Assembly (NCBI GenBank): GCA_944390355.1
Contig: CALXPT010000006.1
Coordinates: 5,826 to 69,825 of the forward strand
Direction of reading: 5' to 3'
DNA: 64,000 bases
Source of the DNA: an uncultured Alphaproteobacteria bacterium
Lineage (GTDB): Bacteria > Pseudomonadota > Alphaproteobacteria > RF32 > CAG-239
In this document: positions 56,444-64,000 of the stretch, piece by piece
Numbering within the stretch: position 1 is the stretch's first letter
Layout: every line of letters begins with the position of its first letter
Program-made: the position numbers and the translations under genes
The notes under the pieces: model-generated
Told to the model about the DNA's origin: nothing
Seen by the model: only the letters and a program-made list of their open reading frames with translations
Database searches by the model: none

Positions 56444-57508
56444 GTGCGTCTGACTACCCTGTTTACTATTCTGAGCCTGCTTTTTGCCGCAACACTACAG
56501 GCGGAAGCATCAACACAAAACGCGCGCTACACGGCAGATGTTAACATTGATGTAACATCATCATCAGCCTCGGCGGCACGAGACAAAGGCATGAAACAAG
56601 CCTATCGCTCGGCATTCACGGCAATTGCCGGCAAAATGACCTCGGGCGAAGGATTAAATCGACTAAAAGAATTAACGGATGAACAGCTTATCAACTTTAT
56701 CCAAGAAACCGAAGTCGTATCTGAAAAATCCTCAGACGTACGCTATATGGCACACCTCAAGATTCGCATTAACGAAAAACTCTTAAAACAGTATATGGAA
56801 GAACAATCGATTCCCTATGTCTTAAAGACTGCGGCCAATATTATAGTAATTCCGCTGTTTCGAGAATTTCCCGCAGATTCGCCCTTGCTGTGGGAAAAGA
56901 ACAATCTTTGGCGCAAAGCATGGGAAAATTCTCCCGTAACCGGCAGTGATAACAATTATATATCCATCCCCGGAGACGGTATCAACTATTCGATTCTGGA
57001 TGCGGAAAAAGCCCGTCAATTAAACGGACAAGCGTTAGATATGGTCGCCAGCCACTTAGGCACACGCAACATTTTTGTTTTAGATAGTTATTACAACGGA
57101 ATAGAGGGGTTAAACATTATTGTGATGTCTTATAAAGACGGCACTCAAAAAACCATCACCGTGAACGGTGAAAGAGGACCGGAGTTGTTTACTCAAGCTA
57201 TACCGGAAATAGCTCGATACATAGATTCGACAATAGCGGAACAAAAGATGAATATGGATTCGACCCCCTCGGAAATAACGGTACTTTATAGCTATCCGAA
57301 ACTCTCAAACTGGGTAGCAACCGAACAAAAATTACAAAATCTCCCGCAAATTAACAACATCAAAGTAGAAGCTATGGGACAAGGCAAAGTTCAATTTAAA
57401 ATCAACTTTATCGGCTCGGTATATGATTTAATCACCGCACTTAAAGCCTATCAAATCAACTTAAACGATATGTCCGGTTATTACACCTTGACCACCTTTG
57501 GAGCATAA
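56444..57508 (+). CDS. Secreted hypothetical protein (GTG start)
   Basis: Signal peptide 'MRLTTLFTILSLLFAATLQAEA'. SD aggag 8 nt upstream of the GTG. Confidence 0.55.
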   Translation: MRLTTLFTILSLLFAATLQAEASTQNARYTADVNIDVTSSSASAARDKGMKQAYRSAFTAIAGKMTSGEGLNRLKELTDEQLINFIQETEVVSEKSSDVRYMAHLKIRINEKLLKQYMEEQSIPYVLKTAANIIVIPLFREFPADSPLLWEKNNLWRKAWENSPVTGSDNNYISIPGDGINYSILDAEKARQLNGQALDMVASHLGTRNIFVLDSYYNGIEGLNIIVMSYKDGTQKTITVNGERGPELFTQAIPEIARYIDSTIAEQKMNMDSTPSEITVLYSYPKLSNWVATEQKLQNLPQINNIKVEAMGQGKVQFKINFIGSVYDLITALKAYQINLNDMSGYYTLTTFGA

Positions 57509-58589
57509 AGCAATGATACAGCCGCAAACAAATACCAAAAACAATCATAACTGGCTTTTTTGGCTGGGGCTGTTTGTAATTTTTTGCTATGGGCTCTATG
57601 TTTTGCGCTCTGTACTTCTTCCCTTTGTGGCCGGCATCACAATCGGCTACTTGCTGGACCCCTGTGTTGTAAAATTCACCAAACTGGGATTAAGCCGCAC
57701 CTTGGCAACCTGTATTGTTTTGATATTACTGATATTGTTACTAATACCGGCCTTAATTTTGCTGTTCAGCGTTATTAACGACCAAGTTGCACGTTTTGTA
57801 TCGGTCATACCGGAATATTTGACATCGCTTTCCCAAAAGCTTGAACCATGGCTCAATGATTTGCACAAAAGTTTTCCGACCATAGATGCCGAAAGAATAA
57901 AAGCTTACATTCGCGAAAACATGGCCTCCTACCTAAAAGTTTTGGGAAAATTGGCACAAAGCCTATTAAACAGCGGTTTTGCCCTTGTAAACATCATATC
58001 ATTGCTGCTCATCACACCGGTTGTAGCTTTTTATATGCTGAGAGATTGGGACGGCTTTGTCAAAAAGATAGACAGCCTGTTGCCGCGCAAGCATAAAGCC
58101 TCAATCCGTCAACAAGCCAAAGAAATTGACCGCACCTTAGCCTCATTCATCCGCGGCCAACTAAGCGTCTGCGTATTGCTTGGTTTGTTTTATTCCGTCG
58201 GTTTATATTTAGTTGGGCTGGAACTCGGTGTTTTAGTAGGTTTTATCGCTGGATTAATATCATTTATTCCCTACGTTGGTTCAATCAGCGGTTTTGTTGT
58301 GAGTATATGCATAGCTCTGGCACAGTTTAATACCATTACACCGATAATACAGGTTATCATTGTATTCATGTTAGGGCAGTTTTTGGAAGGCAACTTTTTA
58401 ACCCCGAAACTGGTAGGAGACAGCGTAGGTCTGCATCCGGTATGGATAATGTTTGCCTTGCTTGCCGGAGGGGTTTTATTAGGCTTTTTAGGATTAATGA
58501 TAGCGGTACCGACAGCGGCAATCATCGGCGTTTTGCTCCGCCACGCCATAGAGAACTACAAACACAGCAGCTTATACCAAAACGGTTGA
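57498..58589 (+). CDS. AI-2E family transporter (PerM/YdiK-like)
   Basis: 8 TM segments. 'LPFVAGITIGYLLDP' and 'GLISFIPYVGSISGF' are characteristic. Confidence 0.8.
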   Translation: MEHKAMIQPQTNTKNNHNWLFWLGLFVIFCYGLYVLRSVLLPFVAGITIGYLLDPCVVKFTKLGLSRTLATCIVLILLILLLIPALILLFSVINDQVARFVSVIPEYLTSLSQKLEPWLNDLHKSFPTIDAERIKAYIRENMASYLKVLGKLAQSLLNSGFALVNIISLLLITPVVAFYMLRDWDGFVKKIDSLLPRKHKASIRQQAKEIDRTLASFIRGQLSVCVLLGLFYSVGLYLVGLELGVLVGFIAGLISFIPYVGSISGFVVSICIALAQFNTITPIIQVIIVFMLGQFLEGNFLTPKLVGDSVGLHPVWIMFALLAGGVLLGFLGLMIAVPTAAIIGVLLRHAIENYKHSSLYQNG

Positions 58590-58673
58590 GACACAAAAAA
58601 CTTTACAAATCTTACAAATCATGATAAACAACGGTTCGTAAAATTTTATTATTAACCGTTAAAATAATTATGT

Positions 58674-59357
58674 ATGAAAGAAATTGGTCATAGGATTAGC
58701 ATTTTTAAGCACACTAGCCCAAACGAAGGCTCAGTGATAACGATTACCGGCAAAGACGGAACAAAAAATTATCATGTTCAATCCGTTACGACACACATAG
58801 CCGTTCACCGACACAATTGTGAAAATTGGCTTTATGCCGCAACCGATAGCAACGGACAATTTATTTTTTTCTTAGAAAGAATAAAATACGAATGCCTGAA
58901 AACCGTTTTTTTTCCGGAAGAAGCGCAAAACGCCGAACAGTATAAATACACGGCCGACGGAATGTTTTATTATCAAAAAAACGGGCAATGGTACATTCTT
59001 AACAAAGAAAATACATTGCTCGGCAAGAAAATATTATCTGAGTTCTTTGTCAAAAAAGATGAGGACAATTCCTACATCATCACACATGAACAAGATTGCA
59101 GCAGCAGCACATTTAAATGCAAAAGCTACAAAATTGCAACAGATGACAATAATGAGAAATGCCTCTTATTAGGCGGCGTTAATGAAAAACGAGAACATTT
59201 TACCATTCTTAACAAGCACGGTCTCGTATCACCTTTCAATTATTTCTTTGCGCTAAACATTGACGGCGAGCACACGCTTTTCAGAAACGAAGGAAATTAT
59301 TGGATAACGCCGGACAGAAAAGTTTCCGAAGAGCTTTACCAATTTGATCAAGATTAA
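58674..59357 (+). CDS. Hypothetical 227-aa protein, tandem paralog 1
   Basis: Shares 'EAQNAEQYKYTADG(M/V)FYYQKNG(Q/L)WYIL', 'FKCKSYK', 'NECLLLG' and 'EGNYWITPDRKV(S/P)EELYQFDQD' with paralog 2. Confidence 0.6.
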   Translation: MKEIGHRISIFKHTSPNEGSVITITGKDGTKNYHVQSVTTHIAVHRHNCENWLYAATDSNGQFIFFLERIKYECLKTVFFPEEAQNAEQYKYTADGMFYYQKNGQWYILNKENTLLGKKILSEFFVKKDEDNSYIITHEQDCSSSTFKCKSYKIATDDNNEKCLLLGGVNEKREHFTILNKHGLVSPFNYFFALNIDGEHTLFRNEGNYWITPDRKVSEELYQFDQD

Positions 59358-59364
59358 AAAAAAC

Positions 59365-59400
59365 AACCTTAGAGTCTAAAACCTCTAAGGTTATTTTTTA
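59365..59400 (+). terminator. Rho-independent terminator (copy 1)
   Basis: aaccttagag-tctaaaac-ctctaaggtt followed by attttttag. Confidence 0.8.
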
Positions 59401-59507
59401 GCTTTCTTTATTGAAAGATTACCCATTAATTAACACTTTACAAATTTATCAAAAAATGCTACCTAAATCACAGATAAATTTATTATTACCCCTAAAATAA
59501 TTATGTT

Positions 59508-60191
59508 ATGAAAAAAATTGGTACAAGGATTGAAATTCTCAATCTCAACACAAAAAAGGAAAAAAACAAAGGTTACCTCATCACCGTTTTTTCAAATAAC
59601 GGAAAACATGAGATTCAAGCTTTATCCGTCAAAAATCTTGAAAGGTTTAACAGCAACTACCAAAACACATGGTTGTATATTATAGTTGATAAAGACAACC
59701 ATCGACTATTTTTTCTTGAATCGGAAGCTCACGGGTGCATTTATCAACTTGATGAAGCTCAAAACGCCGAGCAGTACAAATACACGGCAGACGGAGTGTT
59801 TTACTATCAAAAAAACGGCTTGTGGTATATCCTTGGCTCAGAAATCATATTATTAGGAAAAGAAATATTACCTTATATCTTCATCAAAAAAACTGAAGAT
59901 AACTCTTACCTTGTAACACATAGCCGCCTTAGAACAGATACATTCAAGTGCAAAAGCTACAAAGTTATAAAAGCTAGTAATGGAAACGAATGCCTTTTGT
60001 TGGGCGATGTCACAGAAAAAAGGGAATATTTCATCATTCTAAGCTCACAAGAAGTTATTCATTCTTTTGTTCAGCTTTACATTGAACTAATCATTGATAA
60101 TAAAAGCGTTCTATTCAAGGATGAAGGAAATTATTGGATAACGCCGGACAGAAAAGTTCCCGAAGAGCTTTACCAATTTGATCAAGATTAA
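59508..60191 (+). CDS. Hypothetical 227-aa protein, tandem paralog 2
   Basis: See paralog 1. The 3' ~80 nt and the terminator are nearly identical to copy 1. Confidence 0.6.
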   Translation: MKKIGTRIEILNLNTKKEKNKGYLITVFSNNGKHEIQALSVKNLERFNSNYQNTWLYIIVDKDNHRLFFLESEAHGCIYQLDEAQNAEQYKYTADGVFYYQKNGLWYILGSEIILLGKEILPYIFIKKTEDNSYLVTHSRLRTDTFKCKSYKVIKASNGNECLLLGDVTEKREYFIILSSQEVIHSFVQLYIELIIDNKSVLFKDEGNYWITPDRKVPEELYQFDQD

Positions 60192-60198
60192 AAAAAAC

Positions 60199-60234
60199 AA
60201 CCTTAGAGTCTAAAACCTCTAAGGTTATTTTTTA
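60199..60234. terminator. Rho-independent terminator (copy 2), shared with the convergent methyltransferase gene
   Basis: Hairpin identical to that at 59365..59400. Confidence 0.8.
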
Positions 60235-60927
60235 GCTTTCTTTATAGCGTTCTTTGCGCGCACGGCGAGACAAGCTCCACAAATTTCCCCATCCGTTAAT
60301 CGGCTGAACCTCATATTTGGACTTAAAATCAAAATCACGGGAAAAAAAGAGAGAAGTCGTTTTGGTGTAATTATTCATTGGGCAAAACCCATAAAAATCC
60401 ACTTGCAAAAGATTTGCTTCCCTCAAAGCAGCCACAGCATTTTTATATTCCAAAGAAGTGTTAATGCGGTCGCTGTCATCCAAAATAATCACCCCGCCTT
60501 TGGCTAAGGCCTGAACGGCGCATTGAGCACATTCGGCACGCCGTTTACCGTCAACCACAATCACATCATATTTTTTGTTATCTTCAAATATGGCCTTTTC
60601 ATAAATTTCACCTTCATCCCGCCACCGCACGTCAAGATTAGGTTCATGAAAAAGACCGCACCACTTATCAAACCACTTGGGATTATCCTCAATACTAATC
60701 ACTTTCTGCGCACGCTTTGCCCAAAACAAAGACGAATTTCCGCAGCCGTATTCAAACACCGACTTGTCGCTATAATCAAATTGCGCCAAATACTCTATCG
60801 CTGGATAAGTATACCATGGAATAGGATTTCCGTCTTTATCAACACAAACTTTTTCATCAATCGTGCGTTCAATGGCAAAATCATTACGCCACATATCAAT
60901 AAATTTTTGAAATTTTTCACTATACAT
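60232..60927 (-). CDS. Class I SAM-dependent methyltransferase (TylF/CmcI/FkbM-like O-methyltransferase fold)
   Basis: Motif I 'VFEYGCGNSSLFWA' and 'DVIVVDGKRRAECAQCAVQALAKGGVIILDD'. Confidence 0.6.
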   Translation of the reverse strand: MYSEKFQKFIDMWRNDFAIERTIDEKVCVDKDGNPIPWYTYPAIEYLAQFDYSDKSVFEYGCGNSSLFWAKRAQKVISIEDNPKWFDKWCGLFHEPNLDVRWRDEGEIYEKAIFEDNKKYDVIVVDGKRRAECAQCAVQALAKGGVIILDDSDRINTSLEYKNAVAALREANLLQVDFYGFCPMNNYTKTTSLFFSRDFDFKSKYEVQPINGWGNLWSLSRRARKERYKES

Positions 60928-61044: not shown

Positions 61045-61353
61045 ATGTCCGATATCGAAATCACATTAGTCCACCCGCAAACGCAAGAAACACAAACCAT
61101 CGACTTAGGTTATTCATGGTTGGTCATGCTTTTTGGATTTTTGGTTCCGCTCTGCCGCAAAGAATATAAAATCGCCTTAATTTTCTTCATCATATATTCT
61201 TTTTCGCTCGGAGTTTTATCTCCGTTCATGGCCATATTCTACAACAAACTGCGTCTGGCAGGTTATCTTCACCAAGGCTATAAAATCCAAAACATCGACG
61301 GCGACTTAGATGATAAGACCTTGCAAGAACTCATATCTAAAATCCGCGGCTAA
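61045..61353 (+). CDS. Small membrane protein, hypothetical
   Basis: 102 aa with two TM helices. The 3' end overlaps the convergent holA end by 17 nt. Confidence 0.4.
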   Translation: MSDIEITLVHPQTQETQTIDLGYSWLVMLFGFLVPLCRKEYKIALIFFIIYSFSLGVLSPFMAIFYNKLRLAGYLHQGYKIQNIDGDLDDKTLQELISKIRG

Positions 61354-62941: not shown

Positions 62942-64000
62942 TTACGCCGCTACGATATTAACGATTTTATTCGGCACGACAATAACCTTGCGGATATCTT
63001 TGCCCTCGGTCTGGCGTTTAATATTTTCCAAAGCAAACGCAGCTTTTTCCACCTCATTTTTAGCGGCATCTTTAGGCATTTCAATCGTGCCGCGCATTTT
63101 TCCGTTAAGTTGAACGGCAATGGTAACCACGTCATCTTCGGCCAATTTAGGGTCAAAGACCGGCCAAGGAGCTTTAACGGCCAAATCGCTATGGCCTAAT
63201 CTCGCCCACATTTCCTCAGCCAAATGCGGTGTAAACGGACACATCAAAAGAACAAATGTTCCATAAACCTCAGCCGAAATTTTCTCGGATTCGGACAGCG
63301 AGTTAACAAAACTCATGAGAGAAGAAACGGCCGTATTAAACTTCATCTGGTCAATACGTTCGGTAACTTCTTTAATACACTTATGTAAAGCGCGCAGCTC
63401 TTTTTCCGAAGGCTGGGCAGAAGCATCAACCTTTTTGAACAAGCCATAAACTTTGTTAACAAAACGGTAGACACCCATCAAACTTTCTTCCGACCACATG
63501 GCCACTTGGTCAAACGGCCCGATAAACATTTCATAGAGACGGAAAGTATCTGCCCCGTAACTGCTGACAATATCATCAGGATTAATAACGTTTCCGCGGG
63601 ATTTAGACATCTTTTCGCCGTTTGACGCCAAAATCATTCCGTGCGAAGTACGTTTTTTATACGGCTCGGAGAACGGCACCAAACCGCAGTCAAACAAAAA
63701 CTTGTTCCAAAAACGAGAATACAGCAGGTGCAGCGTAGTATGCTCCATACCTCCGTTGTACCAATCGACCGGCATCCAATATTCCAAAGCTTCTTTAGAG
63801 GCAAATTCTTTGTCATTATGCGGATCGCAATAACGCAGGAAGTACCAAGAAGAGCCTGCCCAGTTCGGCATGGTATCAGTTTCGCGACGAGCTTCTCCGC
63901 CGCATTTCGGACAAGTTGTTTTGAGCCAAGCTCCGGCTTTTGACAACGGCGATTCACCCTCATCATTCGGATGATAATCAGGCACTTCGGGCAGAGTCAA
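62942..64000 (-). CDS. leuS: Leucyl-tRNA synthetase, C-terminal ~350 aa (partial; the 5' end lies beyond the window)
   Basis: 'KMSKSRGN' (KMSKS motif) and anticodon-binding C-terminus '...KVIVVPNKIVNIVAA'. Confidence 0.95.
   Translation of the reverse strand: MTLPEVPDYHPNDEGESPLSKAGAWLKTTCPKCGGEARRETDTMPNWAGSSWYFLRYCDPHNDKEFASKEALEYWMPVDWYNGGMEHTTLHLLYSRFWNKFLFDCGLVPFSEPYKKRTSHGMILASNGEKMSKSRGNVINPDDIVSSYGADTFRLYEMFIGPFDQVAMWSEESLMGVYRFVNKVYGLFKKVDASAQPSEKELRALHKCIKEVTERIDQMKFNTAVSSLMSFVNSLSESEKISAEVYGTFVLLMCPFTPHLAEEMWARLGHSDLAVKAPWPVFDPKLAEDDVVTIAVQLNGKMRGTIEMPKDAAKNEVEKAAFALENIKRQTEGKDIRKVIVVPNKIVNIVAA

Follow-up and report, generated by a model that had tools for sequence, protein, structure and literature searches.

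How do two neighbouring genes that differ over most of their length come to end in the same DNA? The question is posed by a pair of genes in a 64,000-nucleotide stretch of contig CALXPT010000006.1 (positions 5,826 to 69,825 of the forward strand; assembly GCA_944390355.1), which comes from an uncultured alphaproteobacterium and is referred to here, at its full length, as the window. We call the open reading frame (ORF) at 58674-59357 c1 and that at 59508-60191 c2; lineage A is the species of the window, lineages B and C are related to it, and labels such as L014 or P0024 denote sequences compared with the window. The pair lies between the transporter gene perM and a convergent methyltransferase-like gene. 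The original prediction for this locus had been a tandem duplication in place, followed by ancient divergence and by gene conversion of the 3' ends. Ancient divergence and conversion hold: the 3' ends were homogenised after the genes had diverged, by copying of DNA from one to the other. As for the origin of the tandem, it is no less likely that two older, already divergent cassettes were stacked than that one gene was duplicated in situ.

A homogenised 3' tract in a diverged gene pair

The features on which the argument turns are the two genes, the two copies of the tract that they share and the terminator that lies within it.

58674-59357, + strand: c1, encoding a 227-residue soluble all-beta orphan protein; present in all sampled strains of the window's species
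59508-60191, + strand: c2, encoding a 227-residue paralog of c1; present in a minority of strains and 88% identical to the single gene of lineage B
59289-59411, + strand: homogenised tract, copy 1: 22 terminal codons and stop codon of c1, bidirectional terminator and a relic of the methyltransferase 3' end; one arm of a direct repeat
60123-60245, + strand: homogenised tract, copy 2: 3' end of c2, terminator (60192-60233) and genuine 3' end of the methyltransferase gene
59358-59399, not assigned to one strand: bidirectional intrinsic terminator after c1, made up of an A-run, a hairpin (59365-59392) and a T-run, with terminator-scan matches on both strands

Both ORFs lie on the + strand where they had been predicted, and both contain the conserved protein blocks that had been listed for them. 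The proteins share 114 of 231 aligned residues (49% identity; BLASTP E = 3e-74), the units are arranged head to tail at an offset of 834 nt, and the GC content of the genes is 34-38% against 41% in the surroundings. An ungapped comparison of the units and a six-sequence DNA alignment gave a mosaic rather than uniform divergence. From the upstream side, a moderately conserved box and leader (the similarity of the leaders had also been predicted) lead into an N-terminal third that has diverged strongly; the central block is conserved, the second half is diverged again, and at the end stands a near-identical tract of 123 nt.

The tract consists of 66 coding nucleotides, the stop codon, the hairpin with its A- and T-runs and 14 nt further. 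Its two copies differ at one position only (59325 T, 60159 C), which gives Ser218 in c1 and Pro218 in c2. The single mismatch had been predicted correctly, but the coding part measures 69 nt including the stop codon and not about 80 nt; similarly, the terminator hairpin is identical in the two copies as proposed, with a core of 28 nt, or 42 nt if the A- and T-runs are counted, and not 36 nt. The hairpin has the form AACCTTAGAG-N8-CTCTAAGGTT between the A-run and the T-run, and these two sites are the only ones in the window (chance expectation 0). At the overall divergence of 36% per site, a run of such identity has a probability of ∼1e-22, which is still only ∼4e-6 if the divergence of the internal block with the strongest conservation is taken instead.

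Comparison with lineage B shows when the tract became uniform. Within it, the c2 genes of the window's species and of lineage B differ at 12 of the 123 positions (∼10%, like the rest of c2), and at all 12 of these the c1 and c2 of the window's species have the same base. The terminator loop is TCTAAAAC here, TTTGAAGA in lineage B and different again in L018-L022, and it is the same in c1 and c2. Paralogs of one lineage are therefore closer to each other in the tract than orthologs are between lineages, as in concerted evolution, and the tract is a discrete one, with a synonymous divergence (dS) of 0 inside and of 0.85 to saturation outside, as in partial gene conversion. The tract was thus homogenised after c1 and c2 had diverged, by copying of DNA between the genes, since there are no synonymous differences, the non-coding sequence including the relic is identical, and all 12 lineage-specific sites are shared.

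Two haplotypes of the gene ends, GATCAAGAT and GACCGGAAT, are found in c1 and c2 alleles alike, with the c2 of L001 intermediate, although the key contig, L109, is noisy and phasing from short reads is uncertain. The occurrence of multi-nucleotide haplotypes in both paralogs suggests repeated exchange, and conversion is probably ongoing.

Divergence and selection

Outside the tract, the strongest conservation is in a central block of 23 codons.

58920-58988, + strand: central conserved block of c1, EEAQNAEQYKYTADGMFYYQKNG, kept in all family members
59754-59822, + strand: central conserved block of c2, the counterpart of the c1 block

Synonymous and non-synonymous divergence (dS and dN) was estimated by the Nei-Gojobori method. 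Over the whole gene, c1 and c2 have a dS of 1.33, which is effectively saturated, and a dN of 0.39. The values are 1.31 and 0.71 in the N-terminal third and 0.85 and 0.036 in the central block (dN/dS ∼0.04); in the middle region dS is saturated with a dN of 0.39, and in the 3' tract there is no synonymous difference (dS 0) and one non-synonymous difference. The divergence is thus old, as had been predicted, with dS ∼1.3 to saturated outside the conserved blocks. The central block had been expected to differ mostly at synonymous positions and does so: six of its eight differences are synonymous and two are non-synonymous, which points to purifying selection on the protein, rather than conversion, as what holds this block.

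The original prediction had also invoked diversifying change in the middle of the genes. This was not found, as dN/dS is below 1 everywhere (0.3-0.55) and is 0.25 between c2 and the lineage-B gene. What we do see is an excess of amino-acid polymorphism within the species, with a ratio of non-synonymous to synonymous polymorphisms (Pn/Ps) of 13/5 in c1 and c2 together against 24/63 in the flanks (Fisher p = 7e-4); this is compatible with relaxed or with diversifying selection. Synonymous diversity within the species is low in c1 and c2, but a recent sweep was rejected as the reading of this because holA has equally little. Both copies appear to be functional, given the purifying selection on c2 between lineages and on the central block and the confident AlphaFold models of both proteins.

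The joint and the origin of the tandem

Between the end of the first tract copy and the start of the c2 unit lie the remains of both flanking genes.

59398-59411, + strand: methyltransferase relic TTAGCTTTCTTTAT, which repeats the final codons and the stop codon of the methyltransferase gene (60232-60245) and has no coding role at this place
59412-59434, + strand: joint and spacer TGAAAGATTACCCATTAATTAAC, an ancestral-type relic of the perM 3' end (CTGGAAGATTAA) and spacer, fused to the methyltransferase relic at CTTTAT

The downstream end of the unit is therefore fused to its upstream end. The sequence TGAAAGATTACCCATTAATTAAC is colinear with the perM end and spacer of lineage B (L014; CTTTATCTGGAAGATTAA...) and with those of lineage C (L099; CTTTACCTAGAGGACTAGGGTTAATTTAAC, then the ACTTTACAAAT box). 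The perM gene of the window's species ends in LYQNG*, against the ancestral-type LYLED* of the related lineages; the relic in the joint is of the ancestral type, which the species' own perM has lost.

The distances to lineage B (L014) single out c2. Between the window and this lineage dS is 1.0 for ackA, 1.1 for pta, 1.9 for perM, 1.2 for holA and 1.3 for lptE, and is saturated for ndk and a DUF2066-like gene, but it is only 0.50 for the methyltransferase gene and 0.24 for c2. Nucleotide identity is ∼0.9 over 59512-60911 and 0.44-0.8 immediately outside. Since the dS of c2 is far below that of most flanking genes and identity drops at the edges of this segment, these comparisons indicate that c2 was exchanged between lineages A and B long after their split, probably along with the adjoining methyltransferase gene. 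The split between c1 and c2 is at least as old as lineages A and B. This age, taken with the ancestral-type perM relic, favours the addition of c2 beside a resident c1, and the closeness of c2 to lineage B together with the relic favours its import from outside lineage A. Tandem duplication in place, as originally proposed, is made less likely by a c2 dS of 0.24 where most of the flanking genes give 1.0 to saturation, and by a relic of the ancestral type.

In the mechanism that we propose, the joint would have formed by illegitimate recombination at the 6-nt microhomology CTTTAT, between the 3' end of the methyltransferase gene and an ancestral-type perM 3' end. It could have arisen by unequal exchange or, as we think likely, by homology-facilitated illegitimate recombination (HFIR), in which an incoming fragment with a perM end, c2, the terminator and the methyltransferase gene would pair by homology at one end and be joined illegitimately at the other; stacking of this kind would give the same joint. 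After stacking, gene conversion between the copies would have made the last 123 nt identical. The two tract copies would then act as a direct repeat, and a crossover between them would delete c2. We infer the direction and the number of these events.

Copy number among strains

A comparison of strains for copy number had been suggested with the original prediction, and it revealed a presence/absence polymorphism of c2. Among the loci of the window's species that we fetched, 17 have c1 alone, with its terminator running straight into the methyltransferase gene, and nine have the pair. The window's exact c2 occurs in 16 contigs, all of at least 2 kb; two distinct places among them were shown, both of them tandem, and the other 14 had been collapsed as similar. 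The c2 cluster holds 24 contigs, against well over 80 for c1. Because all contigs with the exact c2 are of this length and both places shown are tandem, and because c2 contigs are fewer than those of c1, strains with c1 alone are real and not merely collapsed assemblies.

The c1-only state and the pair are each found on both perM haplotype backgrounds, which implies that c2 was deleted more than once between the 123-nt direct repeats or else that homologous recombination has shuffled the two states. A crossover between the direct repeats that removes c2 fits the many strains that carry c1 alone.

Two sets of sequences are irregular at this place. In sample ERZ28613719 (L113:3684-3879 and L108) the assembly did collapse: in L113 the 123-nt repeat is followed at once by a scaffold gap of Ns, and c2 stands apart as a contig of 889 nt (L108), so that a short repeat led the assembly to drop a gene. 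In L109 the 3' end of c1 has an internal duplication of 58 nt (L109:2109-2840), so that the ORF is called as 243 residues, the c2 terminator has a duplicated half-hairpin (L109:3621-3760) and the methyltransferase is truncated (156 residues); these oddities may stem from genuine slippage at the repeat or from noise in the assembly of a mixed sample.

The insertion site and the flanking genes

The pair has one flanking gene on either side.

57498-58589, + strand: perM, an AI-2E/PerM-family transporter gene, left flank (Pfam PF01594, E = 3.7e-64)
60232-60927, - strand: methyltransferase-like gene, class-I-like, right flank, convergent (Methyltransf_24 at 21.2 bits, below the cut-off of 26.3 bits)

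In L018-L022, which have the nearest relatives of the methyltransferase gene, the site is empty, and the perM stop codon leads through a homologous terminator to the methyltransferase end; this terminator has the same stem as that of the window and a lineage-specific loop. Lineage A has c1 alone or c1 with c2, lineage B has only a c2-like gene that is 88% identical to c2 (L003, L014-17), and lineage C has only a third type, c3 (P0023; L098-101), beside a perM gene with 96% identity to its counterpart in the empty-site genomes L019-22. Other cargo at the site comprises an ORF for a 243-residue cysteine-rich protein with a signal-peptide-like N-terminus (L023:10694-12250), an ORF for a 110-residue helix-turn-helix-like protein (L027:10694-11420) and a repeat-containing insert of 274 nt (L024:10688-10960). 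As relatives have it empty or filled with unrelated cargo, the perM/methyltransferase spacer is an insertion hot spot, and the cassette in it varies between strains. No transposase or integrase gene lies within ∼5 kb on either side of the pair. The sole flanking repeat seen is an 8-nt direct repeat, AAGATTAA, around the insertion in lineage B.

The perM 3' end has been remodelled in the window's species beside the cassette insertion point (window 58560-58600 compared with L014:9880-9915 and the empty-site L018). The last codons of the cassette genes, CTTTACC...GAYTAA (LYQF..D*; 59333-59357, 60167-60191, L014:10660-10684 and L099:915-939), resemble the ancestral perM end CTTTAYCTRGARGAYTAA (LYLED*), and on this likeness the C-terminus and stop codon of the cassette may derive from a duplicated perM end. 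In lineages B and C, perM and the cassette gene have a matching GAT/GAC aspartate codon at their ends; as this concerns one site and may be coincidence, we set it aside.

The methyltransferase-like gene had been labelled as of the TylF/CmcI type. Pfam gave no match to TylF (PF05711) or CmcI (PF04989) at E ≤ 1, and the label gives way to the sub-threshold Methyltransf_24 match and a best Protein Data Bank (PDB) match to entry 3cvo, a ‘methyltransferase-like protein of unknown function’ (E = 0.0015). At least 228 GTDB species representatives carry the gene, with 72-94% identity in the best 80 of the 228; it belongs to the conserved core of the clade and is uncharacterised, with no curated family above threshold. 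A check for co-occurrence, also suggested at the outset, found the 227-residue family in none of the species representatives. Functional coupling of c1 and c2 to the methyltransferase was rejected, as the latter is near-universal in the clade and the site is usually empty; the methyltransferase is a positional neighbour only.

Further downstream, a 102-codon ORF with two hydrophobic segments (61045-61353, + strand) shares 17 nt with the 3' end of holA. Its identity between lineages A and B is only ∼51%, where its neighbours have 85-94%, and it is not called in several assemblies; it is either fast-evolving or not a real gene. A segment of leuS (window 63012-63911, compared with L014) has 85-91% nucleotide identity to lineage B, against 66-82% in the adjacent lptE and holA, which could be due to strong constraint or to a second recombination tract.

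Expression signals of the unit

Each family member is a self-contained unit with a -35-like box, an A/T-rich leader that has no Shine-Dalgarno sequence, a gene of 227 codons and a bidirectional terminator.

58600-58609, + strand: conserved box ACTTTACAAA upstream of c1, -35-like (TTTACA); it also precedes c2, the lineage-B gene and c3
58646-58673, + strand: A/T-rich leader of c1, TTATTATTAACCGTTAAAATAATTATG, with TAAAAT 8 nt before the ATG; the leader recurs at c2, c3, the lineage-B gene and the distant P0024 locus
59435-59507, + strand: upstream region of c2, with the ACTTTACAAA box at 59435-59444 and the A/T-rich leader at ∼59478-59507

The window holds only two exact copies of ACTTTACAAA, at 58600 and 59435, and from their sequence and place we infer a promoter role for the box. 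The leader common to all cassette types is TTATTATTAMCCSYTAAAATAATTATG. Most neighbouring genes have GGAG-type ribosome-binding sites, unlike the cassette genes, in which a TAAAAT hexamer lies 8-9 nt upstream of the ATG; this position would suit a leaderless or near-leaderless mRNA from c1 and c2. The leaders have no stable or conserved RNA fold, none being better than that of shuffled sequence. Rfam families were considered for the conserved ends and were rejected, since the only matches were meaningless microRNA hits on the terminator.

Alternative explanations

The identity of the 3' ends might be ascribed to purifying selection on the C-terminal peptide and on a terminator that also serves the methyltransferase gene, with no copying of DNA. 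The terminator stem is indeed the same across species at empty and filled sites, and the C-terminal motif W-I/V-T...K-x-P-E-x-L-Y-x-F is kept in distant family members. However, the strongly constrained central block reached a dS of 0.85 where the tract has no synonymous difference at all, the terminator loop varies between lineages yet is identical in c1 and c2, and the identity runs on through the 14-nt methyltransferase relic, which is functionless after c1. The loop and the relic thus put the tract beyond what selection on the peptide or terminator can explain, and we consider such an account very improbable. A still smaller chance is left to an assembly artefact, in which alleles of two co-existing strains would have been stitched together through the shared 123-nt tract. 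The one sample with a scaffold gap exactly at the repeat and an orphan c2 contig shows that the repeat does disturb assemblies, but the joint carries a unique 23-nt sequence, c2 never directly follows perM within the window's species, and the tandem is found in at least nine independent contigs from different samples and assemblers at coverage up to ∼15× (independent tandem assemblies include L001, L105-107, L109, L112, L118 and L119). With the tandem and its unique joint recurring in this way across independent assemblies, we rejected an assembly chimera.

Duplication in place is the more serious alternative to stacking, and we rate it as unlikely rather than remote. One ancestral gene would have been duplicated by unequal crossing-over at CTTTAT between sister chromosomes, followed by long divergence and 3' conversion, with lineage B later losing c1 and most strains of the window's species later losing c2. 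An unequal exchange between a perM end and a methyltransferase end would be expected to leave just such a joint. The dS between c1 and c2 (1.3 to saturated) is of the same order as that of the flanking genes (1.0-1.9), so that duplication in the common ancestor is possible. The lineage-B gene has a proximal leader that is largely c1-like (its distal part being c2-like) before a c2-like body, as would result if a tandem pair lost the DNA between its conserved 5' blocks. This history would nevertheless require that c2 passed between the lineages afterwards (dS 0.24 against at least 1.0) and that copies were lost separately in lineage B and in most strains, on top of the empty sites in L018-L022; moreover, a relic as old as the split between c1 and c2 should be more decayed than one whose first 10 nt match the lineage-B perM end at nine positions. 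We hold the sequence of ancient paralogs, stacking at CTTTAT, 3' conversion and repeat-mediated loss of c2 to be the probable history of the locus. Several points weigh against it. The data in hand fit duplication in situ and stacking alike, and constraint rather than transfer may partly account for the low dS of the methyltransferase gene. The sequences compared are nearly all short-read metagenome assemblies, in which the repeat can collapse and variants of the tract may be mis-phased, so that the case for repeated conversion is weaker than that for conversion having occurred. The promoter and the leaderless mRNA, finally, are predictions from sequence.

The protein family, its fold and its possible role

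The family is very small. It forms three clusters at 90% identity among 5.8e9 protein clusters, an exhaustive profile search of 1.84e9 representatives found five proteins, and a protein search with a wider profile found no further members; overall there are ∼7 clusters, all from uncultured gut Alphaproteobacteria. No relatives were found in GTDB species representatives, JGI metagenomes, IMG/VR or phage or plasmid records, and with no transposase or integrase nearby the cassette does not look like cargo of a mobile element. The distant P0024 locus (L103:2860-3565) lies in another genomic context, beside genes for a GNAT acetyltransferase and a META-domain protein. Its conserved leader and ∼20 N-terminal codons are still present and are followed by an in-frame stop codon, and the called gene restarts at a GTG; this copy may be decaying.

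That no domain could be recognised in c1 and c2 was confirmed: neither they nor eight relatives have a credible match in Pfam, NCBIfam, PADLOC or PHROGs, and a profile search of PDB sequences gave nothing below E = 0.4. Matches to DUF4275, AAA_14 and NsnC in the family scans were sub-threshold noise and were discarded. Structure prediction, which had been recommended for this protein, gave confident all-beta models. AlphaFold2, run on an alignment of only ten sequences, modelled c1 with a predicted local distance difference test score (pLDDT) of 89.7 and a predicted template-modelling score (pTM) of 0.82, and c2 with 88.8 and 0.80 and the same strand pattern. Both models have ∼20-21 consecutive antiparallel strands and a short C-terminal helix. 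A Foldseek search of the PDB and BFVD with both models found only local beta-meander similarity and no global match (TM-score ≤0.32), and hhalign detected no internal blade repeats in the sequence.

As to function, we offer only the tentative suggestion of an accessory binding protein of use to particular strains or in particular niches, perhaps in conflicts with phages or other bacteria, and not a partner of the methyltransferase. A more specific proposal, to which we give no more credence, is that the proteins are immunity or defence factors, either orphan immunity proteins to polymorphic toxins or single-gene anti-phage systems, and that conflict drives the divergence, exchange and changes in copy number. 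Patchy presence within and between species at a hot spot, the low GC content (34-38% against 41%), transfer between lineages, tandem divergent paralogs and the excess of amino-acid polymorphism (Pn/Ps 13/5 against 24/63, p = 7e-4) are all in keeping with it. On the other side, the neighbours in all A, B and C loci are perM, the methyltransferase gene, ndk, holA, lptE and leuS, with no toxin, effector or defence partner nearby; PADLOC, PHROGs, Pfam and NCBIfam gave no match, dN/dS is below 1 between the copies and between lineages, and phage and plasmid records hold no relatives. Most of these points, together with the lack of an adjacent mobile-element gene, also count against our own suggestion of a role. 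Bolder still, and in our estimate improbable, is the view that the family is an undescribed exchangeable cassette of promoter, leaderless-type start, new-fold all-beta protein and terminator, whose conserved 5' and 3' ends would serve as handles for the swapping, stacking and deletion of divergent versions at a single chromosomal hot spot and for their movement across species, and whose protein would act in phage or inter-bacterial conflict.

Comparison with known systems

The locus shows side by side a 6-nt microhomology joint, partial gene conversion, likely repeat-mediated copy loss and exchange between lineages, in an uncultured host lineage of human and animal guts that is experimentally almost uncharacterised. 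The family is useful for asking what strain-variable genes do in gut Alphaproteobacteria. Repeats of 123 nt can make short-read metagenome assemblies drop genes, which affects pangenome counts. Of what the locus leaves to be explained, the protein fold is the most interesting part, and an all-beta family with confident models and no sequence or structural relatives is a reasonable target for structural genomics.

In their consecutive antiparallel strands the models resemble the blades of beta-propellers, with local Foldseek similarity at a probability of up to 0.99. Unlike beta-propellers, they have no repeated blades, and they cannot be superposed globally on a closed propeller (TM-score ≤0.32, root-mean-square deviation 10-21 Å). 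There is also local resemblance to single-layer sheets; the strand count and terminal helix are like those of one such protein, Borrelia OspA, with a weak score (probability 0.44-0.57).

Polymorphic-toxin loci carry tandem arrays of divergent orphan immunity genes, for example of the SUKH type. The small cytoplasmic proteins, tandem divergent paralogs, strain-variable presence and lateral exchange seen here are alike, but there is no toxin gene, secretion context or match to an immunity family, and the all-beta model matches none; the resemblance goes no further than that.

The tufA and tufB genes of Salmonella and Escherichia coli are a case of concerted evolution of duplicated genes by gene conversion. 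As in these genes, RecA-type copying within one chromosome keeps a stretch identical, including its synonymous and non-coding sites, and in that stretch paralogs within a genome are closer than orthologs between lineages. In c1 and c2, however, only a 3' tract of 123 nt is involved, and changes have reached saturation in the other 85% of the unit. As direct repeats that lie side by side, the copies can also lose one of their number through the tract, and they are accessory orphans rather than essential genes.

In naturally transformable bacteria, HFIR uses microhomologies of 3-10 bp (PMC6382021). The present locus likewise has long homology on one side (the terminator and methyltransferase gene), a 6-nt microhomology joint on the other and added DNA from a related lineage. 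It differs from those cases in that only the footprint is read, in an uncultured organism, and in that unequal exchange between sister chromosomes gives the same joint. We regard the locus as a clean case of known recombination processes rather than a new kind of system, and it is best described as two stacked members of a new and very small family of orphan cassettes at an insertion hot spot.

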